From a virus, in IMG/VR virus record IMGVR_UViG_3300037245_003639: 64,000 nucleotides of DNA; one strand, given 5' to 3'. A model generated the notes under the pieces. It made no database searches. It saw only the letters and a program-made list of their open reading frames with translations, and was not told the origin of the DNA. The position numbers were made by a program, and so were the translations under genes. Below are positions 25,868-42,461 of this stretch, piece after piece. The first letter of the stretch is position 1. Each line of letters opens with the position of its first letter.

Positions 25868-26103
25868 CCATTGAAGAAATAGAAGAAAAAGTAATCCAAA
25901 TCGTTAGTGATATTGTAGGAGTTCCTCCTGACTCTCTCAACCGAGAAACATCGTTCAACGATTTGAATGCTGATTCGTTGGACACTGTGGAAGTTGTTAT
26001 GGAGTTTGAAGAAATCTTTATGATAGAAATCACTGACGATGATGCTGACAAACTCCTCACCCTCGGGCAATGTATCGACCATATCAAAGAATTGGTGAAA
26101 TAA
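25864..26103 (+). CDS. acpP: acyl carrier protein
   Basis: 79 aa; DLNADSLDTVEVVMEFEEIF, the canonical DSL phosphopantetheine site and helix II. Confidence 0.8.
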   Translation: MTIEEIEEKVIQIVSDIVGVPPDSLNRETSFNDLNADSLDTVEVVMEFEEIFMIEITDDDADKLLTLGQCIDHIKELVK

Positions 26104-26645
26104 TGACTGATTTTCACATGTTTTGGGGTGGCCCTTTTTCTCAATGGTATCCTTCAACATTTGAAGTAGAGGGAGTCAAATACAACTGCACAGAACAGTA
26201 CATGATGGCCAAAAAAGCACAACTCTTTGGAGATGAAGAAGCCATATCAAGAATCATGGCATCAAATAACCCCAAAGAACAAAAGCGTATCGGACGAACT
26301 GTAAAAGATTTTGTGGCAGAACGCTGGAATGCCATTTCCCGAGATGTGGTCTTCAGAGGCAATATGGCGAAATTCACTCAAGACCCAGCCCTTCAGAGAT
26401 TCATATTGGCGACTGGTGACCAGGAAATCGTTGAAGCCAGTCCCGAGGATACCATCTGGGGAATCGGTCTAGCTGCTGAAGACCCTCTGGCTCAGGATAG
26501 GGCCACATGGAAAGGTACTAACTGGCTTGGTGAAGTTATAATGAGCGTCAGGAGCACAATACGCTCTTTCCCAGAGCCGGAACCCGAGTGTCAGGTGGAA
26601 TTGATCAAACCAGTGGCTGAACGTGAAGTCGTACTGGACCCATGA
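26103..26645 (+). CDS. NADAR / YbiA-like (DUF1768) N-glycosidase-family protein
   Basis: TAATG overlap with acpP; motifs FSQWYPSTF, YMMAKKAQLFGD, AKFTQDPALQRFILATGDQEIVEASPEDTIWGIG parallel E. coli YbiA blocks. Confidence 0.7.
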   Translation: MTDFHMFWGGPFSQWYPSTFEVEGVKYNCTEQYMMAKKAQLFGDEEAISRIMASNNPKEQKRIGRTVKDFVAERWNAISRDVVFRGNMAKFTQDPALQRFILATGDQEIVEASPEDTIWGIGLAAEDPLAQDRATWKGTNWLGEVIMSVRSTIRSFPEPEPECQVELIKPVAEREVVLDP

Positions 26646-26701: not shown

Positions 26702-26878
26702 GACTCTTGGTCATGAGTGACTTGGGGCCTAATCAACTCCAAACCGCGTGACACGCTTGCTAGTCACTTATGAACCTGGTGGATGCGGGTCATACCGCCC
26801 CTTGGTTCTGGCATTTCAAGCCAGGGCCATTTTTTTATGTCAGTTTGAGGCAATTGTCCAAGTTTCTTGGAAAATGCC

Positions 26879-26906
26879 TTGACAATAGCCAGGATTCCTG
26901 TATACT
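26879..26906 (+). promoter_or_regulatory. sigma70-type promoter TTGACA-N16-TATACT with the conserved leader TATACTCTCCTTAGACAAGGAG
   Basis: Same -10/leader cassette as the minus-strand early promoters. Confidence 0.5.
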
Positions 26907-26928
26907 CTCCTTAGACAAGGAGCGTAAA

Positions 26929-27261
26929 ATGCGAAGCGAAACCGACCGAATCTGTGCTGCAATCTTGGCTTACCCGCCTTTAGTAGCGGGTCATCCGGTC
27001 TCGAATAAGGCCCTTTCTGACCACGCTCAGGCCCATAGAAGTAACATGTATTGGGCTCTCACCCGAATGGTGAAACGAGGCACGTTGGAGAAACCCAGTC
27101 GAGGTACTTACAAACTCGTAAATCCCTCCCAAAGGTTGGCCGAGATTGCTGCTCAATGCAGCAAACAGCTTGCAGAACGTCAAATTACTGTAACTGTGAA
27201 CGGCCTGCGAGTAATGGGGACCGTAGATGACATCCGAGAACTCTTAATACAGGGAGCATAA
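26929..27261 (+). CDS. hypothetical protein, possibly a winged-helix regulator
   Basis: 110 aa; start after the cassette SD. Confidence 0.4.
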   Translation: MRSETDRICAAILAYPPLVAGHPVSNKALSDHAQAHRSNMYWALTRMVKRGTLEKPSRGTYKLVNPSQRLAEIAAQCSKQLAERQITVTVNGLRVMGTVDDIRELLIQGA

Positions 27262-28267: not shown

Positions 28268-28296
28268 AGTATACCCTATGTTTCCGCCGCTGTCAA
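28268..28296 (-). promoter_or_regulatory. sigma70-type promoter TTGACA-N17-TATACT with conserved leader
   Basis: Read on the minus strand. Confidence 0.55.
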
Positions 28297-29220
28297 GTTC
28301 TTTTCGGATTTCTCTTCGGGTTTCTCTCTCAGCCCCGCTGTTTCGAGAGTCAATGCTACGGCGTTGCATGTACGATTGAGCAGTTGCATACATGCCTGTA
28401 TCGGCTCGCGGCCCTTGGCCCATGCAGTGATGTATTTGTAAGCCCCGCCTAGGTCAGCGTCACGTTCGTAACCGAGAGCATAGAGCAAAACAGCTCCACC
28501 TAATTCGGCTACGATTTCGCCGTCCGCGTATTCTCTGCTACCCTTGCCCCCTTGTGAATTCATCGCACCTAATCTATCATCGGCAGCATGTACTAATTCG
28601 TGGGCGAATGTCGAGACGTTTTCCACGCCGAGAGCGATAGCGTTTCGGCCACCGCTGTACCACCCTTGGGCGGCACCCGTTTGTCCGCTGTACGCTTGGA
28701 GCGACAGGCCCCACTCTTCGGCCACTTCACGCAGGGGTAGCCCGTCTAGGAATTCTTGGGCTTTGGCGTTGTCGGGCCGTGCCTTTTCCCATAGGTCGGG
28801 TTCGGTTATGTCGGTTTGCTCTAGGCCGAATACGGCCATGCCACGGAAACCGTAGATTATAAATCGGTCTTCGTCTGTACCATCATCGCCTTTGACGCTT
28901 CTCTTTCCCTTACAGGGGGCTAGGATAATGAAGGACTTTTCGCCCTGGCGTACTTGTCGTCCTACTTTTTTCCAGCCCGTCCATTCTGATGGGGGAAGGT
29001 CTACCCATTTCTTGCCGACTTTGTTCTTGGTCCTGCCGTAGGTCATGGCGTCGGACATGCCGCGCAAGGCGACGATCAGTTGATTTGACCAGCTATAGTT
29101 GCTGGCGTTTCGCCCGCCACATTTCAGGAATATGGGAGCGATAGCTTTCGGCAGCGTCCCCGCTTTGAACTGGCCGATGATGATGTCAGCGACGGATTCG
29201 GCTTGACCGTAGAGTTTCAT
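28276..29220 (-). CDS. ardC: ArdC-like antirestriction protein / zincin metallopeptidase (ssDNA-binding N-domain plus HExxH C-domain)
   Basis: About 314 aa; FAHELVHA, then GEIVAELGGAVLLYALG, parallel ArdC HELxH ... EELVAELGAAFL; ATGA overlap with the upstream gene. Confidence 0.7.
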   Translation of the reverse strand: MKLYGQAESVADIIIGQFKAGTLPKAIAPIFLKCGGRNASNYSWSNQLIVALRGMSDAMTYGRTKNKVGKKWVDLPPSEWTGWKKVGRQVRQGEKSFIILAPCKGKRSVKGDDGTDEDRFIIYGFRGMAVFGLEQTDITEPDLWEKARPDNAKAQEFLDGLPLREVAEEWGLSLQAYSGQTGAAQGWYSGGRNAIALGVENVSTFAHELVHAADDRLGAMNSQGGKGSREYADGEIVAELGGAVLLYALGYERDADLGGAYKYITAWAKGREPIQACMQLLNRTCNAVALTLETAGLREKPEEKSEKNLTAAET

Positions 29221-29561
29221 GCCAGAATCTCCACGTCCGCATCGGACAGACCTACACCTACCGACTCGGCCCACTCGGCGGTTGTTTTCGGCCAGTCCGT
29301 TGGCAAGCGATTCGAGTCAGGTACCATCGACGCAAAACGCAGAGGCGTTCGGTGTTGCAGTGGGTGAGCCCACCACTTTATCTCGGAATCGTCGGGCTGG
29401 TTGTCGGCAGGTACTACCAGGATAAGCATACCGGCGGGCAACATGCGGCGTTCGCCGGGATTGCCATGAACTGTCTGCTGGCGAGTCACTCCGATAGTAC
29501 GAATAACGTGGTTTTCGGGGCAGCGTCGGACAATCTTCTCACAGTCGCGACATAGAATCAT
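29217..29561 (-). CDS. hypothetical protein, 114 aa, N-terminal CxxC
   Basis: First gene after promoter 29585-29613; translationally coupled to the ardC-like gene. Confidence 0.45.
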   Translation of the reverse strand: MILCRDCEKIVRRCPENHVIRTIGVTRQQTVHGNPGERRMLPAGMLILVVPADNQPDDSEIKWWAHPLQHRTPLRFASMVPDSNRLPTDWPKTTAEWAESVGVGLSDADVEILA

Positions 29562-29584
29562 GTTTCACCTTTACCTTTACTCAT

Positions 29585-29613
29585 AGTATACATCAAGTTT
29601 CGGGGTTTGTCAA
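29585..29613 (-). promoter_or_regulatory. sigma70-type promoter TTGACA-N17-TATACT (perfect -35)
   Basis: Minus strand reads CCCTTGACAAACCCCGAAACTTGATGTATACT. Confidence 0.6.
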
Positions 29614-29678
29614 GGGTAAAAGTGGTTCTTTTTTCGGGCAGACGACGAAGGCGACGAGGTGATGCCAGCGCTTAATCC

Positions 29679-29733
29679 CACTTGAGATCAGTGTGTTCTA
29701 ATTTCCTTGCGAAAATTACACTGATCTCAAGTG
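29679..29733. repeat. inverted pair of the 15-bp element (F 29679-29693, R 29719-29733) around a 25-bp spacer holding a TTCCTTGCGAAAA half-box
   Basis: Perfect 15-bp inverted repeat read directly. Confidence 0.8.
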
Positions 29734-29830
29734 GGAGCTGCGGTTGAGCTGGTGGAGCGGACTCACTCGTGGCATAAAAAAAGGGCCAGCCTTTCGGCTG
29801 ACCCTACCCTTGATGCGAAACTACGCCAGT

Positions 29831-30085
29831 TTAGTAGTCGAGGCCACCTCCTCCTAAGCGGTCTTCGACGGCCTGATCGTGGAGTTGGTCACAAACGCAG
29901 GGGCTCATCAGGCAGTGGTCACAGTCGGCAGAGGGTGACTCGGGCGGCTCGCCCATCTCTTGGTCGAAACGGTCTAGGTCGTCTTCGTGAGCGTCGAGGG
30001 CGTCCTGTCCCGTTAGCATAACGTCTGTATGCCCACAGCAAGGCCAGTCGATGCAGCCGCAAGATCTGATTGGTACTCTGGCCAT
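29831..30085 (-). CDS. small Cys-rich acidic protein, 84 aa
   Basis: Cassette promoter 30117-30144 and SD GGGAGA. Confidence 0.45.
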   Translation of the reverse strand: MARVPIRSCGCIDWPCCGHTDVMLTGQDALDAHEDDLDRFDQEMGEPPESPSADCDHCLMSPCVCDQLHDQAVEDRLGGGGLDY

Positions 30086-30116
30086 TGGTTTGTCTCCCTT
30101 GCTTTGACCTACTTAG

Positions 30117-30144
30117 AGTATACCACATGTTTCTGGAATGTCAA
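30117..30144 (-). promoter_or_regulatory. sigma70-type promoter TTGACA-N16-TG-G-TATACT (extended -10) with conserved leader
   Basis: Read directly. Confidence 0.6.
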
Positions 30145-30290
30145 GTTCCAGTTGAGGGGTCTGTTGTTCATCCACTTGAGATCAGTGTGCTCGGGTGAAC
30201 GGAAAAAAGGCCAGCCTGACGGCTGACCCGCGCTGGGGGTTGGGATTTCGGGCCGTTCGTCTCACGGGTCCACGGCCTCGGGTTGCCCCG

Positions 30291-30560
30291 CTAACTTTTG
30301 ATGATTTCCACGTCATCGGGGCTGCGGAGGGTCACGAAATACGAGCGGACGATACGGTTGTTGGCGACTACCTGTCGGCCGTCGGCTCCCGACTTCCAGA
30401 TGTTGACTCGGAAGCAGCGTGCGGTAATCGGCCTTACATCCATCGACTCATCGGGGGCCAATTTCGGCTCGCCCTGTCGCTCTAACGCATCCGTGATGAT
30501 TGACTCGTTGGTCTTGGTTGGCTGTGTTTCGACTGGTTTCGTTGCGGTGGCGGTTTCCAT
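30291..30560 (-). CDS. hypothetical protein, 89 aa
   Basis: Cassette promoter 30590-30617. Confidence 0.45.
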   Translation of the reverse strand: METATATKPVETQPTKTNESIITDALERQGEPKLAPDESMDVRPITARCFRVNIWKSGADGRQVVANNRIVRSYFVTLRSPDDVEIIKS

Positions 30561-30589
30561 TGTTTGCTCCCTTGCTTTGACCTACTTAG

Positions 30590-30617
30590 AGTATACCACA
30601 GATTCCGCCATTGTCAA
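30590..30617 (-). promoter_or_regulatory. sigma70-type promoter TTGACA-N16-TATACT with conserved leader
   Basis: Read directly. Confidence 0.55.
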
Positions 30618-30882
30618 GTTCTTTGTTCAGGAATATCTAGCCACGCATTTACCACATTGCGTTGAACGACCTCTTGTTCCTCTGTCATTTTTCCGGGTCT
30701 CGGGTCCGCATCAGCCAGTATACGCTTTGCTTGGACTACTGCCAAGTTGTAGCGACGTACTGGATTTCGCTGGTGTCGCCGTCGCTCGACTCGCCGCTTT
30801 GCGGCAGCAGCGATTCGTTGAGCAGTTACCCACGGACATTCTGGTTGAGGCATCGCACCAGTCCTACTTGAGATCAGTGTTT

Positions 30883-31071
30883 CTAACGCGGACCGAGAGT
30901 CTCAGTATGGCGTGCAGTTATTTCGGCGGCTTTGTCTGCCGCTTGTTTGCGTACAGTTGCCGTCAAATCTTCCATGAAAACTTCCACACTCGATTCCAGG
31001 TCTTCTACGTCTGTAATGGTCATTAGGATCTGATTTACAATCCACTTGACCACTTGTTCGTAAGTTATCAT
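30883..31071 (-). CDS. hypothetical protein, 62 aa
   Basis: SD AGTAGGA; co-transcribed downstream of the tRNA-like gene. Confidence 0.4.
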   Translation of the reverse strand: MITYEQVVKWIVNQILMTITDVEDLESSVEVFMEDLTATVRKQAADKAAEITARHTETLGPR

Positions 31072-31129
31072 ATCCTACTCCAATGCTTCGCGTAGCACCG
31101 CTGTCTCACTTGAGATCAGTTCCTTAGTA

Positions 31130-31209
31130 TGGAGCCAGTAGGACTCGAACCTACAATCACCTGTATCTCGCGAGAAATACAGACGGCTTCCCAATTTGCC
31201 TATGGCCCC
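31130..31209 (-). tRNA. tRNA-like gene (80 nt) with canonical acceptor, D and T arms but a non-canonical, extended anticodon region
   Basis: 5' GGGGCCA pairs with 3' TGGCTCC (one G-U); D-loop AATTGGGAA; T-arm GTAGG-TTCGAGT-CCTAC; the central 22 nt are CTGTATT-TCTCGCGA-GATACAG (7-bp stem, 8-nt loop); no CCA encoded; own promoter at about 31270-31300. Confidence 0.45.
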
Positions 31210-31318
31210 AGGGGGCGGCGTGTCTCAGTCCGTCTGTTTGGAATGCCCATTCGGCCAGACAGAGCCGAGCGTCACGCCGCGCGATTCACAGCGTAGTATA
31301 CTCGCCCTTTCCACCTTG

Positions 31319-31477
31319 TCAACGGATAGGCGGATAGAATGGCTGGTGGTCATCGTCGAGCAACATGCCGTCGAACATCCACGGGACGAAGTGGTTGTTA
31401 TCCAGGACATGTTTTGAGGCTGTCGTGGCAGTAATTGCCAGCAGCACCAACAGGTAAACGGCAATTCGTTGTTTCAT
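31319..31477 (-). CDS. 52-aa secreted peptide (signal MKQRIAVYLLVLLAITATTA)
   Basis: Cassette promoter 31508-31535. Confidence 0.35.
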   Translation of the reverse strand: MKQRIAVYLLVLLAITATTASKHVLDNNHFVPWMFDGMLLDDDHQPFYPPIR

Positions 31478-31507
31478 GGTTTTATTCCCTTTGCTTTGAC
31501 CGTATGA

Positions 31508-31535
31508 AGTATACCACATGTGCGGGGTTTGTCAA
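31508..31535 (-). promoter_or_regulatory. sigma70-type promoter TTGACA-N16-TG-G-TATACT
   Basis: Read directly. Confidence 0.55.
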
Positions 31536-31700
31536 GTTCTTTTGTGGAATTTCCACCAAATCGCCGCAAGTTCACGAGTTCCTGTATCGCCGTTACGTCG
31601 GGGAAACCGATAGCGATCAAGGAATTGCCACAACGTCAATTTCCGGGCATCTTGTCGTATGGCTTTCACGGTTTGACTCCCTTGCTTTGACCTTATCAGA

Positions 31701-31729
31701 AGTATACCACACTTGCGGGAGATTGTCAA
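31701..31729 (-). promoter_or_regulatory. sigma70-type promoter TTGACA-N17-TATACT with conserved leader (drives a roughly 46-aa GTG-start ORF)
   Basis: Read directly. Confidence 0.5.
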
Positions 31730-31900
31730 GGGCATTTCCGAGTTCATTTCGATTTTACCGGGAAGGCCAGTGCCGCTGCCCGAGCACGCGCTGCCGGATC
31801 AGTCACTTGAGATCAGTGCGTTTGAATTTCTTTCCGCGAAAAAACGGCCCCGACCGGATGGTCGAGACCGTCTTGATGTTTTCCGTTAGGGGGTTGTAGG

Positions 31901-32173
31901 TTATCCGCCGGGTTTCGGTTTGGTGGGGATGGGGTCAAAAATCCCGCTAACTATGCCGTCCTCACAGCAGCAGTCATCGGCGTCGGGGCCATTGCCTGTT
32001 TGGTCGGCTGTGAACGTGAGATAAATGCCCATCTCACTCACTTGAATGGCTTTGACTACGCGTCTTACTTCGTCCTCCGTCACCGTCACCGTTTCCTCTG
32101 GTCGGGCGTTGGCGACTACCACCGTTGTTTTTCTCAGTCCTGCCCCTATTGGTTGTTTGTCACTGTCACTCAT
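31901..32173 (-). CDS. hypothetical protein, 90 aa
   Basis: SD AGGAG directly after a partial 15-bp element; the upstream gene's stop overlaps the element. Confidence 0.45.
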   Translation of the reverse strand: MSDSDKQPIGAGLRKTTVVVANARPEETVTVTEDEVRRVVKAIQVSEMGIYLTFTADQTGNGPDADDCCCEDGIVSGIFDPIPTKPKPGG

Positions 32174-32195
32174 GCTTGCTCCTACTTGAGATCAG

Positions 32196-32516
32196 TTAAA
32201 CGTATTCGTGGATGCCCGAGCAGACGCCACTGGCATGGCAAACTTCGCCAGCGACATCCCAGCCAACGTGGCCGCATTTGTTACAGAGGGTTTGTCGCCC
32301 TGTCGGTTCTTCTAGCAGCATTCGCAACGTAGCCATGGCGGCGATTCGGCAATCCAGCATACTCGCCAGACCTTGGACTTCGCCAAGGTCGTTTAGATGG
32401 CGCTCGTCATCCTTGACTGCTTGTTTAATTCCATCGAGCGTTATCTGTAAAGCTCGGATACGGGTGAGCGTATCGCCCTTTAGGTCGTCAAGTTTCTTTT
32501 GAGCTACTGCTCTCAT
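32196..32516 (-). CDS. hypothetical protein, 106 aa
   Basis: Cassette promoter 32545-32572. Confidence 0.45.
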   Translation of the reverse strand: MRAVAQKKLDDLKGDTLTRIRALQITLDGIKQAVKDDERHLNDLGEVQGLASMLDCRIAAMATLRMLLEEPTGRQTLCNKCGHVGWDVAGEVCHASGVCSGIHEYV

Positions 32517-32544
32517 GGACTCTCCCTTTGCCTTAACCTTTCTA

Positions 32545-32572
32545 AGTATACCACATCTCAGCAGATTGTCAA
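32545..32572 (-). promoter_or_regulatory. sigma70-type promoter TTGACA-N16-TATACT
   Basis: Read directly. Confidence 0.55.
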
Positions 32573-32683
32573 GCATAAAGTTGTTCTATTTATTAATTTC
32601 GTGTAGGTAATTCGGTGTTGAGTTATTTGGTGTGGGGTATGCGTATGAATTACTCACTTGAGATCAGTGCGGTCTACTCGATA

Positions 32684-32860
32684 CTACTTGGCCCTAATGA
32701 TTTTCGCAAGCTCCGCAGCGATTTGTCGGTTGCTGTTGCCGTCTTGAAACATTTGAAGCCCCTTGTCTCTCACGTCGTCGTCATGCCAGTGGGCATTGGC
32801 TTTTGCTTTTCCTACCAAGTCCCACAACATCATCAGGATAAGACCTTGTTGACTCGCCAT
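32684..32860 (-). CDS. hypothetical protein, 58 aa
   Basis: Promoter 32878-32905. Confidence 0.4.
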   Translation of the reverse strand: MASQQGLILMMLWDLVGKAKANAHWHDDDVRDKGLQMFQDGNSNRQIAAELAKIIRAK

Positions 32861-32877
32861 GTTTGCTCCCTTTGCTA

Positions 32878-32905
32878 AGTATATCACATCTCAGCAGATT
32901 GTCAA
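32878..32905 (-). promoter_or_regulatory. sigma70-type promoter TTGACA-N16-TATACT
   Basis: Read directly. Confidence 0.5.
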
Positions 32906-32967
32906 GAGAAAATTAGAACATCTACACGAAGGAGACAAAGATGGAGAAACTCCAAGTTGGCACTGGC

Positions 32968-33022
32968 CACTTGAGATCAGTGCATCTTTAGAAGATTCGA
33001 TGACCCACACTGATCTCAAGCG
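32968..33022. repeat. inverted pair of the 15-bp element (F 32968-32982; R 33008-33022 imperfect, 13/15)
   Basis: Read directly. Confidence 0.7.
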
Positions 33023-33046
33023 AGTTCCATTTAAGATCTTTTGCTC

Positions 33047-33198
33047 TTTATTAACTTTATGCTGTCTTGTAACTCGTTTATTTGCAAGGGTTTATGGAAG
33101 CCCGATTTAACTATGTCAGTGATGTGATTTTAGCTTTTATACTGTTTTATAACTCGTTTGTTTACAAGGGTTTATGAGAGGTCTGATTTAGACTATTT
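33047..33198. repeat. two direct repeats of about 72 bp (TTATRCTGTYTTRTAACTCGTTTRTTTRCAAGGGTTTATG...)
   Basis: Units 33047-33116 and 33127-33198, about 80% identical. Confidence 0.6.
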
Positions 33199-33240
33199 CG
33201 ATGGTGTGGATTAATAAAGATCGCTCTGCTTAAATAAAAA

Positions 33241-33270
33241 CCGCCCAAGCGTGAACTTGAGCGGTTAGGT
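33241..33270 (-). terminator. rho-independent terminator (ccgctcaag-N6-cttgggcgg plus U-tract) after gene 33289-33639
   Basis: Stem and T-run read on the minus strand. Confidence 0.6.
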
Positions 33271-33288
33271 CAAAGTGGTAAGGGGTTG

Positions 33289-33639
33289 CTACCTTTCGTC
33301 GGGAAACATCAGAGTGATGCCACCGCTTCCGTTGGCCCCAATCCATACGTCTTTGCCCGTGACGTTTCCTCCGAGGCCTTCCGTCCACAGATGATCAGCG
33401 GGGTTGCCCTTTACAATCAGCAGAGCGTCCTGGATGAGTGGGATGGCTCGCTGTTCGAACGTCCTGTCGTCCTGGACGGCTTCGATGGCTTCGTGGACTC
33501 TGACGGTCAAGAAGACTCGGACTCCAAACTTGGCTGGAAATGGCTCACCAATCATGCCGTCTTCGAGCGCGTCGTCGTCGGTATAGACGCTGATAGGGTC
33601 GCCAAACATCTCGGTCATCGGGTCTTTTGCTTTGCTCAT
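33289..33639 (-). CDS. hypothetical protein, 116 aa; leaderless (ATG 6 nt after the -10 TACTAT)
   Basis: Promoter 33646-33674 (TTGACA-N17-TACTAT). Confidence 0.45.
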   Translation of the reverse strand: MSKAKDPMTEMFGDPISVYTDDDALEDGMIGEPFPAKFGVRVFLTVRVHEAIEAVQDDRTFEQRAIPLIQDALLIVKGNPADHLWTEGLGGNVTGKDVWIGANGSGGITLMFPDER

Positions 33640-33689
33640 GTATGAATAGTAACCCATGTTTGCCACTTTGTCAAGCGAAAAATTGGTTC

Positions 33690-33703
33690 TTTTCCGCGGA
33701 AAA
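33690..33703. promoter_or_regulatory. perfect 14-bp palindrome TTTTCCGCGGAAAA about 16 bp upstream of the -35 (centre near -62)
   Basis: Read directly. Confidence 0.5.
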
Positions 33704-33900
33704 TTGAAGAGTTTGCGAATTTTGTAATTTTGTAACTTTGTAACTGTTTCGCAATTTCGCAATTTTGCAACTTTGTAACTGTTGCAACTTTGCAAGTATT
33801 TGCAACTTTGCAACTTTGCAACTTTGCAACTTTGCAACTTTGCAACTTTGCAACTTTGCAACTTTGCAACTTTGCAACTTTGTATTTGCAACTTTGCGAA
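33700..33900. repeat. microsatellite: 8-bp unit TTGCAACT (about 13 pure copies at 33796-33896, degenerate copies upstream)
   Basis: Read directly; the ORF-track products with KVAKLQSCK repeats are artefacts of it. Confidence 0.85.
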
Positions 33901-33935
33901 GATTCAACTATTTCAAGTTTGGGTGGAACCAGGTT

Positions 33936-34012
33936 CACTTGAGATCAGTGTAAAAAGTAATTTCGTGTAGGTAATTCCGTGTTGCAATTTCGTGTAGCAC
34001 TGATCTCAAGTG
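33936..34012. repeat. inverted pair of the 15-bp element (F 33936-33950, R 33998-34012) enclosing three AATTYCGTGTWG iterons
   Basis: Read directly. Confidence 0.8.
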
Positions 34013-34061
34013 GGCCTGGTCAGCGCTCCATCAGGGTGGCCTGCTTGCCCTTTTATGTGGG

Positions 34062-34097
34062 CGCAAAAAAAGAGCGACCCATTTCTGGATCGCTCTA
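34062..34097 (-). terminator. rho-independent terminator (agagcga-N12-tcgctct plus U7) after gene 34141-34341
   Basis: Read on the minus strand. Confidence 0.65.
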
Positions 34098-34140
34098 CCG
34101 CGCAAGCAAGCGGATTTCTCCGCTTGCCCTCTACCGCCCG

Positions 34141-34341
34141 CTAGTCGTCGAGCGTGACGGGTACGAGTTTCACCCGAATCAGTTTCGTTTCGTCCCTTTC
34201 AGGATGCGGGTGATGGTAGTGGACGATCACGCCTTCGTCGTCAGAGCCGACGGGTTCTGGCGCTTCGGCGCGAGCGCTCTCCTCCAGCCCTACTTTGATG
34301 CACGCGATCAAACTCTTTTTCTCTGCCGCCGTCATTGCCAT
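34141..34341 (-). CDS. hypothetical protein, 66 aa
   Basis: ORF. Confidence 0.4.
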   Translation of the reverse strand: MAMTAAEKKSLIACIKVGLEESARAEAPEPVGSDDEGVIVHYHHPHPERDETKLIRVKLVPVTLDD

Positions 34342-34392
34342 TGTTGGCGCTCCTTATGTAGGTTTTAGTGGTCCTCACACATTTGTGCTACC

Positions 34393-34881
34393 TTATCCTA
34401 CAAGTCGTTGTTGTTGGGCTAATCGAGCGTCACGGATGCGGGTTGCCGTCTCGCGCTCGATAGACCTTACTTCTTTGTCGGATGGCCCTGCCAGTTTATC
34501 CAGCGGCGTATCACAGTCCATCCCCGTCAAATCCAACTCCACAGTCTCGCCGCTTTGCTCGGCCATTTCGAGAGCATCCCCGATAACATCGAGTTTGCTC
34601 ATGGTCAGACAGAGCCGTGCTCCATCATGGTGACAGAGTAGGGCGAAATGCTCAGCAGACAGACCCATCAGGAAGTCGATGGTACGCTCGGATCTTGGCG
34701 TATACTGGGTAAACATCGACGTTAGTAACCGATGGCGGTTGCCCGTTGTAACGTCTACCACTTTGCCGTGAGGCGAAGCCACGTTGTTGTATCTGCCGCT
34801 TCCCGGTTTGCGGCCAGCTTCGGCTCTGCGTTTCTTATGTATGCCACTGTCGGCTGTTCTGTCCTGAATTGCTATGCTCAT
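34393..34881 (-). CDS. hypothetical protein, 162 aa
   Basis: Promoter 34916-34944 (TTGACA-N17-TAAACT). Confidence 0.45.
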   Translation of the reverse strand: MSIAIQDRTADSGIHKKRRAEAGRKPGSGRYNNVASPHGKVVDVTTGNRHRLLTSMFTQYTPRSERTIDFLMGLSAEHFALLCHHDGARLCLTMSKLDVIGDALEMAEQSGETVELDLTGMDCDTPLDKLAGPSDKEVRSIERETATRIRDARLAQQQRLVG

Positions 34882-34972
34882 TGTGGTTCCCTTTCATCGC
34901 TTTGACCATACCAGTAGTTTACAGTGCGTTTCTGGTCCTGTCAAGGCTTTGTCAAGGATTTTCTCACTAACT

Positions 34973-35710
34973 TTACGCCAAGCCCATTGTCCGCCGATAC
35001 TCGGCTTCGTCCATCGGGACGCCACCAGCGGGAGCCGCTTCCATGCCGCTTGTCGTGACAACGTGACGGCGGCTGTACTCCAATGCTTCGGTCGAGTCGT
35101 ACTCAATCGGGCTGTCTTGCGTCGGGTCGGTGACAATCCACGTATGACCGAGAGCGTGAAACTCGGTAACTCCCCGCATACAGAGTTGCGTATACGGTCG
35201 CCACTGGCCGAAACGTCCAGCCATTTTCTGTCCGTTAGGCTGGATTTTCACGCCGTCAGTATAGAAACCCGCCAGCGGATACAGGTCACGCTCTAGCGGG
35301 TCATAGTTACGGCCGCGGCCCGTCAAAACGGGAGCGTGACGGGAGCCGTTACCCTTTTCCCGATTGTAGTTGATACAGGATACCCAGCGGAGCGTACGAG
35401 CGGCTTGTAGGATGATTTTCTCACCCGGGCGTCGGGCTGGCTTTTCTCGCAAGTCGTAACGCTTGCCGTCAGGTCCGTAGACGATGCTAGCATTACTTCT
35501 ATCAGGATGCGTTTGTCCATCGTCAGTAACGAGCTTGGAATGGTCGCCACAACGCACCAGCGTCCCGCTTTCCGTCATGTTGGGGGGCGGATAGCGGGAA
35601 TAAACGTCGGTACGTCGGACAATGTTAGCAGTGAAGATTCGCCACGGTGATTTAGCGATAATATCAAACGTCGCTTTGACTTCCTGTCGCCTGATATGGT
35701 AAGTCGCCAT
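34973..35710 (-). CDS. hypothetical protein, 245 aa (His-containing block EFHALGHTW; possible hydrolase)
   Basis: Promoter 35739-35768 (TTGACA-N18-CATAAT) and the conserved leader. Confidence 0.45.
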   Translation of the reverse strand: MATYHIRRQEVKATFDIIAKSPWRIFTANIVRRTDVYSRYPPPNMTESGTLVRCGDHSKLVTDDGQTHPDRSNASIVYGPDGKRYDLREKPARRPGEKIILQAARTLRWVSCINYNREKGNGSRHAPVLTGRGRNYDPLERDLYPLAGFYTDGVKIQPNGQKMAGRFGQWRPYTQLCMRGVTEFHALGHTWIVTDPTQDSPIEYDSTEALEYSRRHVVTTSGMEAAPAGGVPMDEAEYRRTMGLA

Positions 35711-35763
35711 GCTATCCCTTTCGCTTTGACCTATAGGGATTATGGCCTATGTTGGGCTTGCTG

Positions 35764-36018
35764 TCAAGTTCTTTTTGGCTTAAAATTCTCGGGATGCGCG
35801 GTCTTGCGAACGTCAACGTAGTCACGAACCGCTTGCTTCGTAGCTACATGAACCCAGCTTTTGTCTGGGAAGTCGATTCGCCAGTAACGGGTACGATAGA
35901 TACCGTCCCCAAAATCCTTCGGTGTCCCACATTGTCCCCAATTGCAGTAACAATGTACAGGGACTATCTTACAGCCCTTGTATGTCCAGTTTTTGCGGCG
36001 GTCTGGTTTCATGCTCAA
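35764..36018 (-). CDS. small Cys-rich protein, 84 aa
   Basis: ORF. Confidence 0.4.
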   Translation of the reverse strand: MSMKPDRRKNWTYKGCKIVPVHCYCNWGQCGTPKDFGDGIYRTRYWRIDFPDKSWVHVATKQAVRDYVDVRKTAHPENFKPKRT

Positions 36019-36113
36019 ACCCTACAGCAGATTCGGCAGGTTGTCAAGTTCTTTTGCGAGAAAACTCGACTAACCGGCCAAGCAGGAGGCCAGCGTCCAC
36101 TTGAGATCAGTGT

Positions 36114-36445
36114 TCATCCTGAGTTGTCAGCCCCCTCCATAGCAGTCGTGACAGCGTCGGCAATCTTAGCGGGGTTTGCGTTTCTGATAAGCGGATACAA
36201 CGCCACTAGCAGGGATTCCACGCCGTCGGTAAAACCGTTAGCAAACAGACGGTCTCTCACGTCGCATTCGAACGTGCCTTGCAGCTCGCTCTTGGCATCT
36301 TGGATGCTGGCTGTGCTACCGTCGCATTCGTAGCAACAGTTATCCTGCCCGCAATGGTCGCAGGTCTGACGAGGCAACGCCGATGCGATGCTATTCTCAA
36401 CCAACTCGATTTCGACATTCTGTGGATATACTCGAAATTTCACGC
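36114..36445 (-). CDS. hypothetical Cys-rich protein, 110 aa (GTG start)
   Basis: SD GGAGGA directly after the 15-bp element at 36455-36469; stop followed by the element at 36098-36112. Confidence 0.45.
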
Positions 36446-36605
36446 CAGTCCTCCACTTGAGATCAGTGCTCTTCCTACTCTACGCCACTTGAATTCTGTC
36501 GGCATCACGAGTCCTCAACTCCTGAAACGGTAGTTTACCTGATACCGGCTGGCTTGTCAAGGGAATTATATGTTCATTTTATGAGAAATTTATTCAGAGT
36601 TGGGG

Positions 36606-36634
36606 TTGACAAATGCTTGACAGTGTTGTATACT
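36606..36634 (+). promoter_or_regulatory. plus-strand sigma70-type promoter TTGACA-N17-TATACT inside the minus-strand block
   Basis: Read directly. Confidence 0.5.
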
Positions 36635-36640
36635 TCATTC

Positions 36641-36800
36641 TGTTGAGTGAATGGAATGGCCCATAGGAGGCCGAAACCCGCGCAGGAGAATCGCCTATGC
36701 GAACCGGAAACACCTGGTCAAGTTCCTAATTATTGGTCAACATCGCGCAGACGTACCGTTCGACATACGGTCCCGGGTCCAAACCCGGGGCCGTTTTTAT
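36641..36800 (+). ncRNA. candidate sRNA of about 160 nt between promoter 36606-36634 and terminator cccggg-tccaaa-cccggg plus T-tract (36772-36799)
   Basis: The only ORF, 36651-36839, runs through the terminator and has no SD. Confidence 0.4.
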
Positions 36801-36891
36801 TTCGTGTTGCAATTCAGTGTTAGCACTGATCTCAAGTGAGTGATCCAGGGTGACAGATTATGTCACCTTCGACGACCTCGTCATCTGCTTA

Positions 36892-36929
36892 AATAAAAAA
36901 ACCGCCAGCAATCTTTCGATCACTGACGG
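36892..36929 (-). terminator. rho-independent terminator (gccgtcag-N14-ctggcgg plus U7) after gene 36946-37512
   Basis: Read on the minus strand. Confidence 0.5.
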
Positions 36930-36945
36930 CATAAAGTATTCGGTG

Positions 36946-37512
36946 TTAGTCTTCGGGTATCAGATGCGTCACATCCAATTCCTGGTCGAACAGGATTGTC
37001 GCGCATGTCGCAGGCAGCATGTCAGTATCCAGGTCGAGGTGCATCGCCGAGGCCACATCCTCGCAGATACTATCAGGAGCGTGAAAGTCCTCGTGGACAG
37101 CAACAAAGAATGGGAAGACGTAGACCCGTTCGCCTTCCTTCCGATCCAGGTAACTCAAGTCAAGGGCAGCGTCGATACGGGCCAACAGGGCTTCCGAGTG
37201 GGCGATTGCGTCTCTGTTTCTTTCGCCATCGTCGTGTCGAGCAGGAGAACTAGGAAGTTCCAACTCCGCTTGTGCGCTGTCGATGCGGCCCTCCACATCC
37301 TCCCGATACTCCAGAACCAGTTTGTGAAGCTCCACGATGAGATTGGGCTGGGCAAACAGGTCAGCCCATTCACCGTAATTCTCGTCCCCTGGGCGACGGA
37401 TTTCTTCGACGTTGCCATGTATGTCTCGGCGACGGATTTTACCGTCATCATCGGGGAACTCGATTACCCCGCCATCGGAAAGCTCGAAACCACCTTCGGA
37501 GAATTTGCCATT
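36946..37512 (-). CDS. hypothetical acidic protein, about 188 aa (GTG start after AAAAAGGAG)
   Basis: Promoter TTGACA-N17-TATATT at about 37533-37562; the longer ORF-track start overlaps the -10. Confidence 0.45.
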
Positions 37513-37575
37513 CACTGTGAACTCCTTTTTGACCACTGAAGTAATATACCACATCTGAAGTGAATTGTCAAGGGG

Positions 37576-37682
37576 GAATGTTCAAAAAAAAGCCACGGCG
37601 ATGGCGCGTCCGCCGCAGCTTGCTCGCAACTAGCTGGTCAAAGCCTGAAAGGAGCCACTGAACGTGGTTCCCAGTTACGAGC
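37576..37682 (-). ncRNA. candidate sRNA of about 105 nt: promoter TTGACA-N17-TACAAT (37689-37717), no ORF, hairpin plus U8 terminator
   Basis: Read directly. Confidence 0.35.
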
Positions 37683-37717
37683 AATAGCATTGTATCGGGA
37701 GCGGGCATGATTGTCAA

Positions 37718-37776
37718 ACAAAAAGCCCGCCGGTCGAATCCCTGTTGTCGCGAACAGCAGGGAAAGACCAGCGGGC
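37718..37776 (-). terminator. strong rho-independent terminator (11-bp outer stem enclosing an 8-bp inner hairpin, plus U-tract) after the small ORF 37823-38029
   Basis: Read on the minus strand. Confidence 0.65.
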
Positions 37777-37822
37777 TATCATTCATTATGTCACATAAGC
37801 CTCGGCTTGGACGACGCTATCG

Positions 37823-38029
37823 TTAGAAGATTGCGAACTTTCGTCCTACAGTATGAGTCATTCTAACTTCACAAATGCAATGGCGGGTTGATACCGCCAG
37901 CCGAGGACTGTCTAACGAGAGGAAGAGAGCTTCAAGCTCCGTTGGCGTGGTAGCGATAGCATCTTGCGGAACTGCTGGGATTGCAGATGCCGTCGCTGCA
38001 AAAATGATAAGCTCAAAGCCAATCACCAT
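37823..38029 (-). CDS. 68-aa hydrophobic peptide; leaderless (ATG 6 nt after the consensus TATAAT)
   Basis: Promoter 38036-38063 (TTGACA-N16-TATAAT). Confidence 0.35.
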   Translation of the reverse strand: MVIGFELIIFAATASAIPAVPQDAIATTPTELEALFLSLDSPRLAVSTRHCICEVRMTHTVGRKFAIF

Positions 38030-38075
38030 GAGTGTATTATACCATTAAAGGACAGGTTGTCAAGCAAAAACGGAT

Positions 38076-38540
38076 TTACTTTCCGATACGGTCTTCTCTC
38101 AGATTCTCTCGTCGCTCAAGTTCTAACTCGTCATATATGTCGTCGGTCTCGCGCATTTGTTCGTGATACAACGCCTCTGCCAAACCATTGAGCGTACAGT
38201 AGGCGTTGTACTGAACGATAGTCAGCATTAGGCCCATCAGCGAATCGAATGTCCCATGTCCAGTCTCGTCGAACTCATTTGGCGATTCATCGTGGCGAGA
38301 TGGACCTTGCTCGAATCTCACCAGTGACCACTTGAAGTAGGGCTGGTCCACAGATGCAAACATGCTCTTGGACCCCGACCCATCTGGTACCTTGCGAGTT
38401 GCCGCTTCTGGGAAGAGAGCCCACATGCCAGCGTTGATGCAGTCGCCTTCGTCGCTGATTTGGATTTGGTCGTCAGGGATTTGGAGCAGACTTGCTGCCT
38501 TTATCACAAACGGCAGTTGTTTTTCAAGCTCAAGTTTCAT
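38076..38540 (-). CDS. hypothetical acidic protein, 154 aa
   Basis: -10 TAGACT 6 nt before the ATG; a 15-bp element sits about 25 bp upstream of the -10 where a -35 would be expected. Confidence 0.45.
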   Translation of the reverse strand: MKLELEKQLPFVIKAASLLQIPDDQIQISDEGDCINAGMWALFPEAATRKVPDGSGSKSMFASVDQPYFKWSLVRFEQGPSRHDESPNEFDETGHGTFDSLMGLMLTIVQYNAYCTLNGLAEALYHEQMRETDDIYDELELERRENLREDRIGK

Positions 38541-38606
38541 GTTGGTAGTCTACTTCATCCTGGTGAGCGACGCCGTTCCACTTGAGATCAGTGTCGCTCG
38601 GCCTTC

Positions 38607-38753
38607 ACTCACCGATTTCGTCCAATGCCCCCAGCACAGCGGCTTCTAGCTTCTCAAACGCTGTCTGCTTACTCCCGTCAATCGGGTGAACAACCTCTTG
38701 CTCTGGGTCGATGCCTTGATTTCGCAAGATTTCTTCGATAAGTTCATTCATCT
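38607..38753 (-). CDS. hypothetical protein, 48 aa
   Basis: Promoter TTGACA-N17-TAGACT (38772-38798). Confidence 0.35.
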
Positions 38754-38820
38754 TTGCTCCCTTGCGGGTAGTCTACTCCATCCGCGAAAGTTTGTCAAGG
38801 ACGGATTCGGAACTAGCTTG

Positions 38821-39204
38821 TCAGAATCGTTCGACCAGCTCTGCGACGCGAGCCACAGCGGCAGCTCGTCGCGCCACTTCACTTGAGATCAGTGTCGCTT
38901 TGCTCAAACCCATCGTGGCTTCAAATGCAGCTACGTCTTGTTCGATTGCAGCCAAGGCACTCTCTTCTAAGGAAGTATCACGGCCACGGGCCTGCCCGTT
39001 TTTGATGCGAACTCTTAGGGATTCCGCGTTGAAAGTGGGATAATGAATGGTTAGGTCGTTATACCCTTCGACCCGGAGGCTGTTACGATACTCACCCCAA
39101 TTCGGCCCGATGAAACGAGCAACGGTTTCGCCGTCCCCGTTTACTTCCAATTCAAAACGCTCTTTCTCATCAGAGATAAGCGTTTTGACGTATATTTCGT
39201 CCAC
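38821..39204 (-). CDS. hypothetical protein, 127 aa (contains a 15-bp element in frame, encoding TLISSE)
   Basis: ORF. Confidence 0.45.
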   Translation of the reverse strand: MDEIYVKTLISDEKERFELEVNGDGETVARFIGPNWGEYRNSLRVEGYNDLTIHYPTFNAESLRVRIKNGQARGRDTSLEESALAAIEQDVAAFEATMGLSKATLISSEVARRAAAVARVAELVERF

Positions 39205-39225
39205 GGGTCAGAACCTCACTTGAGA

Positions 39226-39600
39226 TCAGTGCCCTTGTTCCACGGCCAACTGTTTGAGTTTCATCTTGGCTATCTGTTTGGCATACTTGCGGAGCATCTT
39301 CTTCGCTCCAGCAGCCATCCTAAGCGTTATGTCTCCACGCCAGTTGGCAATGCGACCACCGAAGTCGCCATCCCGCCCATTGTAACCAATTCGGTTGAGA
39401 GCGATAGTCCGACCAGCGTCTTGCTCTTCGTTGGTCTGTTGCGAATGAATCATCTTAGCGGCCCGTTTCAAGGCAGCCCGATGTTCACGTAGGTTGATGT
39501 CGCAAGTAGAATCAAACCACTCACGAATCGCTTTAGCCTTGGCGTTGAGTTCTTTCGTTGTCATTGGCCCGTGCCTTTCGGGCTTTCTTGCCCCTGGCAT
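39226..39600 (-). CDS. hypothetical protein (start uncertain: MPGARK or MTTKEL); stop TGA lies inside the 15-bp element 39217-39231
   Basis: An out-of-frame 48-aa basic ORF (39537-39683) is TAATG-coupled to the upstream gene. Confidence 0.4.
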   Translation of the reverse strand: MPGARKPERHGPMTTKELNAKAKAIREWFDSTCDINLREHRAALKRAAKMIHSQQTNEEQDAGRTIALNRIGYNGRDGDFGGRIANWRGDITLRMAAGAKKMLRKYAKQIAKMKLKQLAVEQGH

Positions 39601-39678
39601 TCGGTTGTTTGGGAGGAACTATCACGGTGACTTCTACGGGTCGGCTACCCAACGTCAAAACTGCCAGTCGCTTATCCA

Positions 39679-39927
39679 TTAGCTTGTCCTCGCGTTCACT
39701 TTCCACTTATTGCCACAGTTCCCCCGACAAAAAGCCTCGTCCCCCATAATTTCCACTGTCCCTGATTGGCAGAGCGGACATTCACGGTTAGGAGGAGGCT
39801 CAATCGTTGGCTTGAAGTTGGCGTACCGTTCGTAATGCTCGGTACAAAAGTCGAAGTGGCCGACATGATGCGATGCTCGCTTATCGCAACGCTCATCTGG
39901 TTTTAGTAGTTGCCAGTTGCATCTCAT
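39679..39927 (-). CDS. zinc-finger protein, 82 aa
   Basis: Cys/His pairs. Confidence 0.4.
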   Translation of the reverse strand: MRCNWQLLKPDERCDKRASHHVGHFDFCTEHYERYANFKPTIEPPPNRECPLCQSGTVEIMGDEAFCRGNCGNKWKVNARTS

Positions 39928-40011
39928 GTCGGTATCTTACTCTATTCTGGTTGAATTGTCAAGCGGAACTTTGTTCTATTTCGTGTTGCAATTCCGTGTT
40001 GGAATTCCGTG

Positions 40012-40674: not shown

Positions 40675-40739
40675 CTCCTGTTAGCGTAGCTCGCTTTGCT
40701 AGCTTGATAGATGAACCTTACCAGATTTTCCGCGGAAAG

Positions 40740-41192
40740 TCAAGACAAAATTTGCTGTTTCAGTTCTTCGGCCACAGCGGGCAAGTCCAAGTCGAAGCCC
40801 GTCCCCAGAATGCTACTCACGCCGATAGCCAATTCGGTTTCCTTGTCGCTCAGCGGAGGAACATCTTGCAGCGCAAGATGATCCACGGATCGTTGTAACG
40901 CCTTGGCATCGGCCAGCGGCAAAGTGAGACTAACTTCGATGCCATCGTCCTTAAGCTCGAATCCGATTGTGGTCTCAACGTCGTTCGTCGGCTTCTTGAC
41001 CTTGGCCAAGTCTTTCGACAAGGCCGTCGCCAAGACGCCTTCAAAAGCGCCAAGGTCGCCTTCCAGAATTCCCGCGTGAGAAGCGAGAAGTTGTCGGAGA
41101 ACCTTAGCGTCGTCCGCAGGGAGAGTTAGATTCGCCTGAACGCCATTGTCCCTAACTTCAAACTCAACGCTGGTTTCAACTTCGCTACTCAT
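40740..41192 (-). CDS. hypothetical protein with an internal duplicated domain of about 60 aa
   Basis: Two repeats of E(F/V)E(L/V)(K/R)D(N/D)G(V/I)...LTLP...DAKAL. Confidence 0.45.
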   Translation of the reverse strand: MSSEVETSVEFEVRDNGVQANLTLPADDAKVLRQLLASHAGILEGDLGAFEGVLATALSKDLAKVKKPTNDVETTIGFELKDDGIEVSLTLPLADAKALQRSVDHLALQDVPPLSDKETELAIGVSSILGTGFDLDLPAVAEELKQQILS

Positions 41193-41698: not shown

Positions 41699-41707
41699 CG
41701 CAATCTC

Positions 41708-42445: not shown

Positions 42446-42461
42446 TTTGGTCTGTTCCTAG

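Follow-up and report, generated by a model that had tools for sequence, protein, structure and literature searches.

A viral tRNA-Ala derivative with a closed hairpin in place of its anticodon arm is conserved as a structured RNA

A 64,000-nucleotide (nt) stretch of viral DNA from IMG/VR record IMGVR_UViG_3300037245_003639, called the window here, carries a tRNA-like gene of 80 nt on its minus strand. The RNA it specifies is a viral tRNA-Ala whose anticodon arm has been rebuilt, at its loop end only, into a closed helix. The gene is under purifying selection as a structured RNA and lies behind a near-consensus sigma-70 promoter. These features suggest that it encodes a selected, expressed, non-decoding RNA with a tRNA body that acts in trans, and we put the probability of this reading at roughly one half.

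An earlier note on this DNA had reported a tRNA-like gene at 31209-31130 with intact acceptor, D and T arms, and the analysis agrees. Rfam family RF00005 matches the entire gene with 50.3 bits (gathering threshold 29; E=8.5e-08 when the whole window is searched), and a permissive Rfam scan finds no other tRNA in the 64 kilobases (kb). The range for relatives whose anticodon arm is normal is 53.5-59.1 bits. ARAGORN also detects a tRNA here, of unassigned type (tRNA-???) and with a 2-base 'anticodon (cg)'. The first half of the RNA reads GGGGCCA-UA-GGCA-AAUUGGGA-AGCC-G-UCUGUAUUUCUCGCGAGAUACAGG. The second half, which follows UCUGUAUUUCUCGCGAGAUACAGG and comprises the variable loop, T arm and acceptor 3' strand, reads UGAUU-GUAGG-UUCGAGU-CCUAC-UGGCUCC-A. 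Besides a 7-base-pair (bp) acceptor stem, the RNA keeps G18 and G19 in the D arm, U54, U55, C56 and the G53-C61 pair in the T arm, and the further tertiary-fold nucleotides U8, A14, A15/U48, A21 and A58. The minimum free energy (MFE) and centroid structures are the same cloverleaf with a closed arm (-31.3 kcal/mol, z=-3.25). As had also been noted, no CCA is encoded; UAC comes after A73.

The acceptor stem begins with the pairs G1-C72, G2-C71, G3.U70 and G4-C69. Bacterial alanine identity is determined by G3.U70, A73, G2-C71, G4-C69 and G20 (Table 1 of PMC9976931), and none of these determinants is located at the anticodon. All five are present in the window gene.

The anticodon arm is replaced by a closed hairpin. 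The earlier note rightly saw a non-canonical stem-loop here, but its 7-bp stem and length of 22 nt do not hold; U27 had been left out, and the arm is therefore 24 nt long (31183-31160). This arm can be drawn as 8 bp with an 8-nt loop, as 9 bp with a 6-nt loop (the ARAGORN version) or as 10 bp with a UCGC tetraloop, and it is the last form that the MFE and centroid predictions agree on. A 7-nt anticodon loop is missing. Anticodon stems of natural non-canonical tRNAs have 5 bp, or 6 bp in tRNA-Sec-like RNAs, tRNA-Pyl and some mitochondrial tRNAs, and the window arm exceeds the 6-bp maximum of that review by 3-5 bp (PMC7609411).

Orthologues were sought through homologues of a neighboring ArdC-like protein, which led to contigs L078, L079 and L080 (protein identity to the window 76%, 68% and 58%, respectively). 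L078 is collinear with the window across more than 16 kb. The tRNA-like gene is syntenic in L078 and L079, and it sits in the middle of the collinear block, away from any integration junction. The L078 arm is identical to that of the window at all 24 positions, and the remainder of the RNA differs in telling places: T-stem pair 50-64, U-A in the window, is C-G; C and A at acceptor positions 6 and 7 are replaced by U and G with pairing to G67 and U66 retained; and the variable loop is 1 nt shorter. L079 has the same tRNA body as L078. Its arm, a hairpin of 41 nt with helices of 7 and 6 bp around an internal loop and with a 10-nt terminal loop, is unrelated to the window arm and has neither the UCUCGCGAGA palindrome, nor an anticodon-type loop of 7 or 8 nt, nor a GC dinucleotide. 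Both orthologues likewise hold the complete set of five alanine identity elements, and the acceptor 3' strand UGGCUCC is the same in all three RNAs.

Among the other contigs with ArdC homologues, L212 and L213-216 proved to be unrelated elements, and L217, a short relative of L080, has no tRNA-like gene. A megablast search of 29000-33500 against phage and plasmid records found no close relatives. Scans of viral contigs for the arm sequence, for divergent pairs of the repeated motif described below, and for the D-arm pattern combined with a long insert gave no matches.

Because the anticodon loop is absent and the arm is 3-5 bp too long, and far longer in L079, the RNA is predicted to be unable to decode. 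The earlier note had proposed an unusual decoding tRNA of the frameshift or suppressor type. Such an RNA might use an 8-nt loop, UCUCGCGA, on top of an 8-bp stem and serve as a tRNA-Ala(CGC) or as a suppressor or +1 frameshift tRNA, or it might be an intron-containing tRNA-Ala from which splicing produces a normal loop. The center of the arm, C-U-CGC-G-A, would be a canonical alanine anticodon loop, the drawing with 8 bp and 8 nt that alone presents it as a loop is possible, and ARAGORN still reports a tRNA. However, the predicted folds shut the loop to 4 nt, and a stem of 8-10 bp is longer than that of any natural decoding tRNA in the review cited above. A decoding tRNA has an anticodon stem of 5-6 bp and a 7-nt loop that carries U33 and a 3-nt anticodon, an arrangement that the window gene does not have. 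Nor does it resemble a +1 frameshift suppressor, for its stem has at least 8 bp instead of 5 and the L079 orthologue has no comparable loop. The absence of a GC dinucleotide from the L079 arm means that no alanine anticodon (NGC) is possible there, even after simple excision. A bulge-helix-bulge or group I intron would not fit into the window insert of only 7 nt, and Rfam returned no intron family. A decoding function is thus very improbable.

The tRNA-like genes have diverged much less than neutral sites. Identity outside the arm is 0.86 for window and L078, 0.79 for window and L079, and 0.89 for L078 and L079; the corresponding values at approximately four-fold synonymous sites of the ArdC gene are 0.51, 0.37 and 0.43. 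At a neutral identity of ~0.51, the chance of 24 identical arm positions in window and L078 is near 1e-7 by our own arithmetic. T-stem pairs vary on both sides among the three orthologues (50-64 is U-A, C-G and U.G; 51-63 is A-U, A-U and G-C). In an alignment (A2) of the three tRNA-like RNAs with five normal relatives, the acceptor and T stems are 100% paired, with changes on both sides in six pairs; acceptor pairs 1-4 are invariant, and pairs 5-7 covary. The covariation score of A2 is 0.516, versus 0.114 in shuffles, and it was reached by 0 of 500 shuffles. Because the identity of the body is far above that of synonymous sites and the stem changes are compensatory, the gene is under purifying selection as a structured RNA. 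The arm shared by the window and L078 is constrained at the level of sequence.

These data bear on the possibility, also raised earlier, that the gene is a disrupted tRNA. It could be a decaying tRNA-Ala pseudogene, or a DNA-level element such as a palindromic operator or the remnant of an attachment site. In favor of these options, viral contigs often carry aberrant, expanded tRNA-like genes, the copy in L080 has partly degenerated (both described below), and the arm is a palindrome in DNA. However, a tRNA pseudogene would evolve near neutrality and have decaying stems, which the window gene does not. Synteny, conservation above that of synonymous sites and compensatory changes refute a neutral relic; in addition, a strong promoter is dedicated to the gene, which has no integration junction beside it. 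The palindrome UCUCGCGAGA occurs only once in the window and is missing from L079. We consider a pseudogene or DNA element improbable. UCGCGA was tried as a significant restriction site or palindrome and was rejected, as its counts are ordinary.

The origin of the RNA is apparent from normal relatives. A metagenome scan for the unusual D arm GGCUAAUUGGGAAACC together with an alanine acceptor produced 12 genes of normal length (71-72 nt). Nine of them encode tRNA-Ala with anticodon UGC or CGC, four sharing one sequence, and three carry a GUC anticodon on an alanine acceptor. ARAGORN detected several tRNAs at each of six tRNA-Ala loci and arrays of 20-42 tRNAs at three; one contig of this set is 434 kb. 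Arrays of 20-42 tRNAs are typical of huge phages. The identical pattern had 0 matches among 185,579 cellular genomes. The D arm GGCUAAUUGGGAAACC is one that the window RNA has in common with normal tRNA-Ala(UGC/CGC) of huge-phage-like tRNA arrays. The UAUU variable loop and the outer four arm pairs also match these relatives, the outer 4 bp being the ancestral anticodon stem seen in, for example, L084. Descent from a viral tRNA-Ala follows from these three matches.

Two kinds of unusual tRNA were encountered beside this lineage. Normal-length tRNAs at L086:8203-8273, L087:523-593 and L089:5197-5267, on metagenomic contigs of 11-70 kb, combine a GUC anticodon with the acceptor GGGGUAG/CUACUCC, G3.U70 and A73, and are candidates for tRNAs that mistranslate Asp codons as alanine. 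A tRNA with a UUA anticodon, of the ochre suppressor type, is located at L091:5773-5847 (+) within the array of 42 tRNAs.

The tRNA-like gene is preceded by a promoter and a long leader (Table 1). A TTGACA-N16-TATACT promoter had been recognized previously, but was placed at ~31270-31300; its actual position is 31322-31295, ~20 nt farther upstream, where its -35 hexamer overlaps the stop codon of an upstream open reading frame (ORF) for a protein of 66 amino acids (aa). It is one of ~33 TTGACA-N16/17-TAnnnT sites in the window. In the region from ~28 to 43 kb, many of the small minus-strand genes are preceded by a near-consensus sigma-70 promoter. In several cases the promoter leads into a conserved 5' untranslated region (UTR), GGTCAAAGCAAGGGAG or taGGTCAAAGCAAGGGAG, and a small ORF, and this repeated promoter-UTR cassette is also found in L078 and L079. 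The promoter of the tRNA-like gene differs in that it leads into an ORF-less leader with a long hairpin instead of the small-ORF cassette. When 31288-31121 is folded (-69.8 kcal/mol, z=-3.19), the leader hairpin and the cloverleaf form separate domains. Across the window, the promoter series takes the form (a)cTTGACAA-N16/17-(tg)GTATACT and its 33 sites lie mainly at 28268-43525 on the minus strand.

In L078 and L079 this position is taken by a small Arg-rich ORF, and short stretches of the window leader can be aligned with the 3' portion of that ORF. The ORF encodes 41 aa at L078:7072-7197 (+) and 58 aa at L079:1117-1293 (+), with VWPPR...RRI...DPWR[SQ]Y in common, and it stops 7-10 nt before the tRNA-like gene. 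The window has only DNA remnants of this ORF, within the leader and downstream of the newly placed promoter.

Table 1. Positions of the tRNA-like gene, its parts, its orthologues and nearby features
Feature	Position	Strand	Details
tRNA-Ala-derived tRNA-like RNA gene	31130-31209	minus	80 nt; Rfam, ARAGORN, fold
Acceptor stem, 5' strand	31203-31209	minus	GGGGCCA; pairs with 31137-31131 (UGGCUCC)
D arm	31185-31200	minus	GGCA-AAUUGGGA-AGCC; carries A14, G18, G19, G20, A21
Closed hairpin at anticodon-arm position	31160-31183	minus	UCUGUAUUUC-UCGC-GAGAUACAGG; includes palindrome UCUCGCGAGA
T arm	31138-31154	minus	GUAGG-UUCGAGU-CCUAC; sequence and fold
Acceptor stem, 3' strand, and discriminator A73	31130-31137	minus	UGGCUCC-A, then U
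Sigma-70-type promoter	31295-31322	minus	TTGACA-N16-TATACT; 11/12 consensus
ORF-less 5' leader	31210-31288	minus	~79-86 nt; long imperfect hairpin 31280-31215; ends U(-1)
Repeated-motif copy	31107-31120	minus	ACTGATCTCAAGTG (14-nt core); 9 nt past A73
Downstream 62-aa ORF	30883-31071	minus	orphan protein; GGAG Shine-Dalgarno
ArdC-like zincin anti-restriction protein	28276-29274	minus	Pfam
NADAR-domain protein	26070-26645	plus	E=6e-53
163-aa protein	26770-27261	plus	sub-threshold AbiEi-antitoxin/Mrr_N winged-helix match
Orthologue in L078	7201-7279		RF00005, 41.4 bits
Orthologue in L079	1300-1395		RF00005, 33.7 bits

Another suggestion of the earlier note was that the gene is a processing handle for RNase P or RNase Z. 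According to this alternative, a cis-acting 'punctuation' handle would be cut by RNase P plus RNase Z or RNase E within an early transcript, and the released piece would be a by-product. Its role would be to define two transcript ends, namely the 5' end of the mRNA downstream and the 3' end of whatever RNA lies upstream, which is the hairpin leader in the window and the mRNA of the small ORF in L078 and L079. The tRNA-like fold of the window, L078 and L079 and its predicted embedding in a longer transcript would fit such a handle. The genes form a same-strand series with no intrinsic terminator between the tRNA-like gene and the next gene, and in L078 and L079 the gene begins just beyond the small-ORF stop codon. 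U or C at position -1 and U after A73 suit the processing of tRNA ends, and RNase P is indifferent to the anticodon arm, consistent with replacement of the arm. However, a pure handle needs no specific arm sequence, and this alternative therefore gives no account of an arm that is fully identical in window and L078 while synonymous sites are ~50% identical. With a promoter of its own and a leader devoid of ORFs, the window gene has no message upstream of it that would need punctuation. Moreover, the flanking genes differ between relatives, and the next unit has its own repeated promoter-like motif. The handle is a viable explanation, but we judge the odds to be clearly against it.

A survey of viral contigs places the window gene among other aberrant tRNA-like genes. 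A pattern that forced an alanine acceptor and an over-long body matched 73 viral loci, several with closed arms. An unbiased control pattern, which required only a common D arm and a T loop separated by 3-19 nt more than usual, matched at least 110 distinct expanded viral tRNA-like genes. Such genes are thus common in viral contigs, with all identities represented. An alanine-specific class of aberrant viral tRNAs was rejected, given that G3.U70 is present in 9 of 110 control matches among those listed.

Closed-arm tRNA-like genes that are independent of the window gene exist in other large-phage or jumbo-phage contigs, with arms of at least 8 bp and UUCG or GCAA tetraloops. In full-text searches of an open-access library, we found no account of closed-arm phage tRNA-like genes. 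One example, at L043:4536-4615 (-) on a 288-kb contig, is an alanine-type gene that encodes CCA, has an 8-bp arm closed by a UUCG tetraloop and adjoins a normal tRNA-Ala(UGC). Closed-arm genes are also located at L029:3841-3917 and 4884-4966 (-), including one not of the alanine type whose 8-bp arm ends in GCAA. Those at L007:7549-7628 and L097:~1626-1706 have the closed arm in common and different acceptor stems. On another viral contig, L034:5772-6303 (-) contains a transfer-messenger RNA (tmRNA) gene (tag ANADETFYALAA) that adjoins an aberrant alanine-type tRNA-like gene and a tRNA-Phe.

If the window RNA acts in trans, its biogenesis might proceed as follows. Host RNA polymerase would transcribe the gene from its own near-consensus sigma-70 promoter, or, in the relatives, behind the small ORF. 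The stack of acceptor and T arms and the elbow formed by the D and T arms would admit the RNA to the host tRNA machinery, with RNase P presumably cutting at U(-1)|G1. The U that precedes G1 and the U after A73 suit RNase P and the 3' processing of precursors without CCA. The 3' end would then be trimmed after A73 and CCA added. With its full alanine identity set, the mature RNA is predicted to be a likely substrate of alanyl-tRNA synthetase. Acting early in infection, it would owe its processing, its stability and its recognition by tRNA-binding proteins to the tRNA body. The hairpin, which is specific to the lineage, may be a payload displayed on a natural 'tRNA scaffold', or a device that removes the RNA from translation so that it serves as a mimic or decoy. 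The latter role is attractive given the early, anti-defense-type neighborhood described below.

Several observations weigh against a trans-acting, alanine-charged RNA. Only three clear orthologues are available, all of them metagenomic, and with so few, conservation of G3.U70 is inseparable from that of the first five acceptor pairs. The low frequency of G3.U70 among the listed control matches means that alanine charging may be inherited baggage. A search for antisense targets of the arm in the window, L078 and L079 produced only chance-level 9-11-mers. No conserved protein partner adjoins the gene: the 62-aa ORF that follows it in the window is absent from the matching position in L078 and L079 and is therefore not a conserved partner of the RNA. 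Furthermore, L080:1502-1682 (+), elsewhere in the gene order, has a sigma-70 promoter ahead of an ORF-less RNA of ~150 nt that is a partly degenerate or remodeled homologue. This RNA keeps a perfect T arm, the UAGCUCCA 3' end and a long internal hairpin, and its 5' segment GGAGUAG can pair with its own 3' end, but G4 has been lost and the D arm and stem have decayed. The promoter-driven, ORF-less organization of this homologue fits the trans-acting reading, but its loss of G4 and the D stem implies that the cloverleaf is dispensable in the wider lineage.

A broader and more doubtful proposal is that large phages repeatedly evolve 'anticodon-ablated' tRNAs, which would be matured by the host, charged with alanine in the present case, barred from the decoding center and, together, constitute a distinct class of effector RNA. 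The members would be the window gene and the UUCG-capped or GCAA-capped genes of L043, L029 and L007/L097. Candidate roles are a decoy or competitive inhibitor for tRNA-directed immune nucleases or tRNA-modifying toxins, a donor of aminoacyl groups for non-ribosomal reactions, or a natural scaffold for a host-specific hairpin.

The element that follows the tRNA-like gene had been described as 15 bp long and eight nt away. An element is indeed present, but its core is 14 nt, it starts 9 nt past A73, and it is repeated. The core ACTGATCTCAAGTG has 27 copies on both strands of the window between 27814 and 51540, whereas 0.16 are expected. Read against the ORF list, all 27 copies lie between ORFs and are oriented with the downstream gene, often as divergent pairs (six pairs, 17-49 nt apart). 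Each is followed by G-R-R and either immediately precedes a Shine-Dalgarno sequence or has a sigma-70 promoter 40-100 nt downstream. Equivalent places in relatives have ACTGATGTCAAGT (L078 and L079) or ACTGATGTCAGGT (L080 and L217). Because the motif is long, invariant within a genome and co-varying between genomes, it is probably the recognition site of a factor encoded by the element, most likely a promoter used by an RNA polymerase or sigma factor of the element itself. Within the window, no RNA polymerase of the single-subunit type was recognized. The motif is 8-9 nt after the tRNA-like gene in the window and L079, and ~60 nt after it in L078, past a GC-rich hairpin. The copy beside the tRNA-like gene is probably the start of the next transcription unit and outside the RNA. 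Pairing between the arm and the motif (GAGAU-A-CAG with CUGAUCUC) was considered and rejected because there is no covariation: L078 has the identical arm and an altered motif, ACTGATGTCAAGT.

Plus-strand copies of the motif (29720-29805, 33999-34096, 36825-36930 and 42932-~43010) face the ends of minus-strand genes, each being followed ~60-80 nt downstream by a terminator hairpin of the converging gene. Should the motif prove to be a promoter, the products of these copies would be short non-coding or antisense RNAs, several of which share a CCUGGU-type start. The unrelated element L212 (JGI 3300018080, a 60.7-kb contig) has many TTTCTCTTGACA promoters and a repeated 12-13-mer, CCGAAATAAGTGC, in 8 copies. 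This likeness suggests that systems that pair host promoters with an element-specific motif may be a wider pattern.

The unit downstream of the motif copy consists, as previously described, of a GGAG Shine-Dalgarno sequence and the gene at 30883-31071. The sole database match of its 62-aa product is itself, on a 403-kb contig, and identical copies of the locus are present in three samples. Neither this protein nor the 199-aa protein that follows the tRNA-like gene in L078 has homologues beyond this lineage.

Most ORFs of the window are orphans. Recognizable products include a SNF2-type helicase, an FtsH-like protease and a RuvB-like ATPase, and the protein encoded at 11622-12770 has homologues in Bacillus and Vibrio phages of 150-195 kb. 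No structural genes were seen in the window. The source is taken here to be a huge phage or another giant element of this kind. Candidate anti-defense-type genes, for the ArdC-like and NADAR-domain proteins, are 2-5 kb from the tRNA-like gene. The gene for the 163-aa protein in Table 1 is a further counter-defense candidate nearby.

Phage tRNAs are usually explained as helpers for codon usage or as replacements after loss to defense nucleases, and both explanations require decoding. A non-decoding tRNA that is kept by purifying selection and has a strong promoter points to a non-translational job in a huge phage, the more so as its body retains every element predicted to be needed for maturation and alanine charging. 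The target, if found, could reveal a new RNA-based mechanism of host takeover or counter-defense. If the RNA does act in trans, it would also be a natural precedent for the tRNA-scaffold designs of RNA engineering; if it is only a processing handle, it would be the bacterial-virus counterpart of mascRNA-type 3'-end formation.

Several known RNAs resemble the window RNA in part. The viral tRNA-Ala(UGC/CGC) of L083-L094 share its acceptor with G3.U70 and A73, the D arm GGCUAAUUGGGAAACC, a T arm with GGUUCGANUCC, the UAUU variable loop, the outer anticodon-stem pairs and a comparable Rfam score. In contrast to these tRNAs, the window gene has a closed hairpin of 24 nt (41 nt in L079) that replaces the 7-nt loop and inner stem, and it is solitary in an early-type region, with its own sigma-70 promoter and no tRNA array. 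The resemblance to tmRNA lies in an alanine acceptor (G3.U70 and A73) and T arm on an RNA whose anticodon is not read. However, tmRNA has no D stem or closed anticodon-side hairpin, and carries a tag frame and pseudoknots between its acceptor strands, whereas the window RNA is a complete 80-nt cloverleaf for which ARAGORN reports no tmRNA and Rfam returns only the tRNA family.

YrlA (Y RNA-like) RNAs have been mentioned for jumbo phages (PMC7824862). Like the window RNA, YrlA, a partner of Ro60/Rsr, is a tRNA-mimicking non-coding RNA of some large phages. Its topology is the reverse, since YrlA ends in an anticodon-side Ro-binding helix and has a closed 'acceptor', whereas the window RNA ends in its acceptor stem. 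A Pfam scan of 40 larger window ORFs found no TROVE/Ro60 domain; small ORFs were not scanned.

The mascRNA of MALAT1 and the tRNA-like elements of the herpesvirus MHV68 work as processing handles. With these and with the C4 RNA of P1/P7, which is processed by RNase P, the window RNA shares a cloverleaf-like shape, a non-functional anticodon region and an origin in a longer transcript; RNase P cleavage and CCA addition, as in mascRNA-type RNAs, would be expected for it also. No mascRNA, MHV68 or C4-type element is known to keep a full synthetase identity set. The window RNA differs from mascRNA-type RNAs in that it is a recent, clear derivative of tRNA-Ala whose arm is under sequence-level constraint. 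In engineered 'tRNA scaffold' chimeras, the anticodon stem-loop is swapped for an RNA of interest, which permits stable expression in Escherichia coli. The architecture of the window RNA, an intact tRNA body with a grafted hairpin, is identical, and maturation by tRNA enzymes and high stability are predicted for it as well. Unlike these chimeras, the window RNA is natural and conserved, with a short payload of 24-41 nt.

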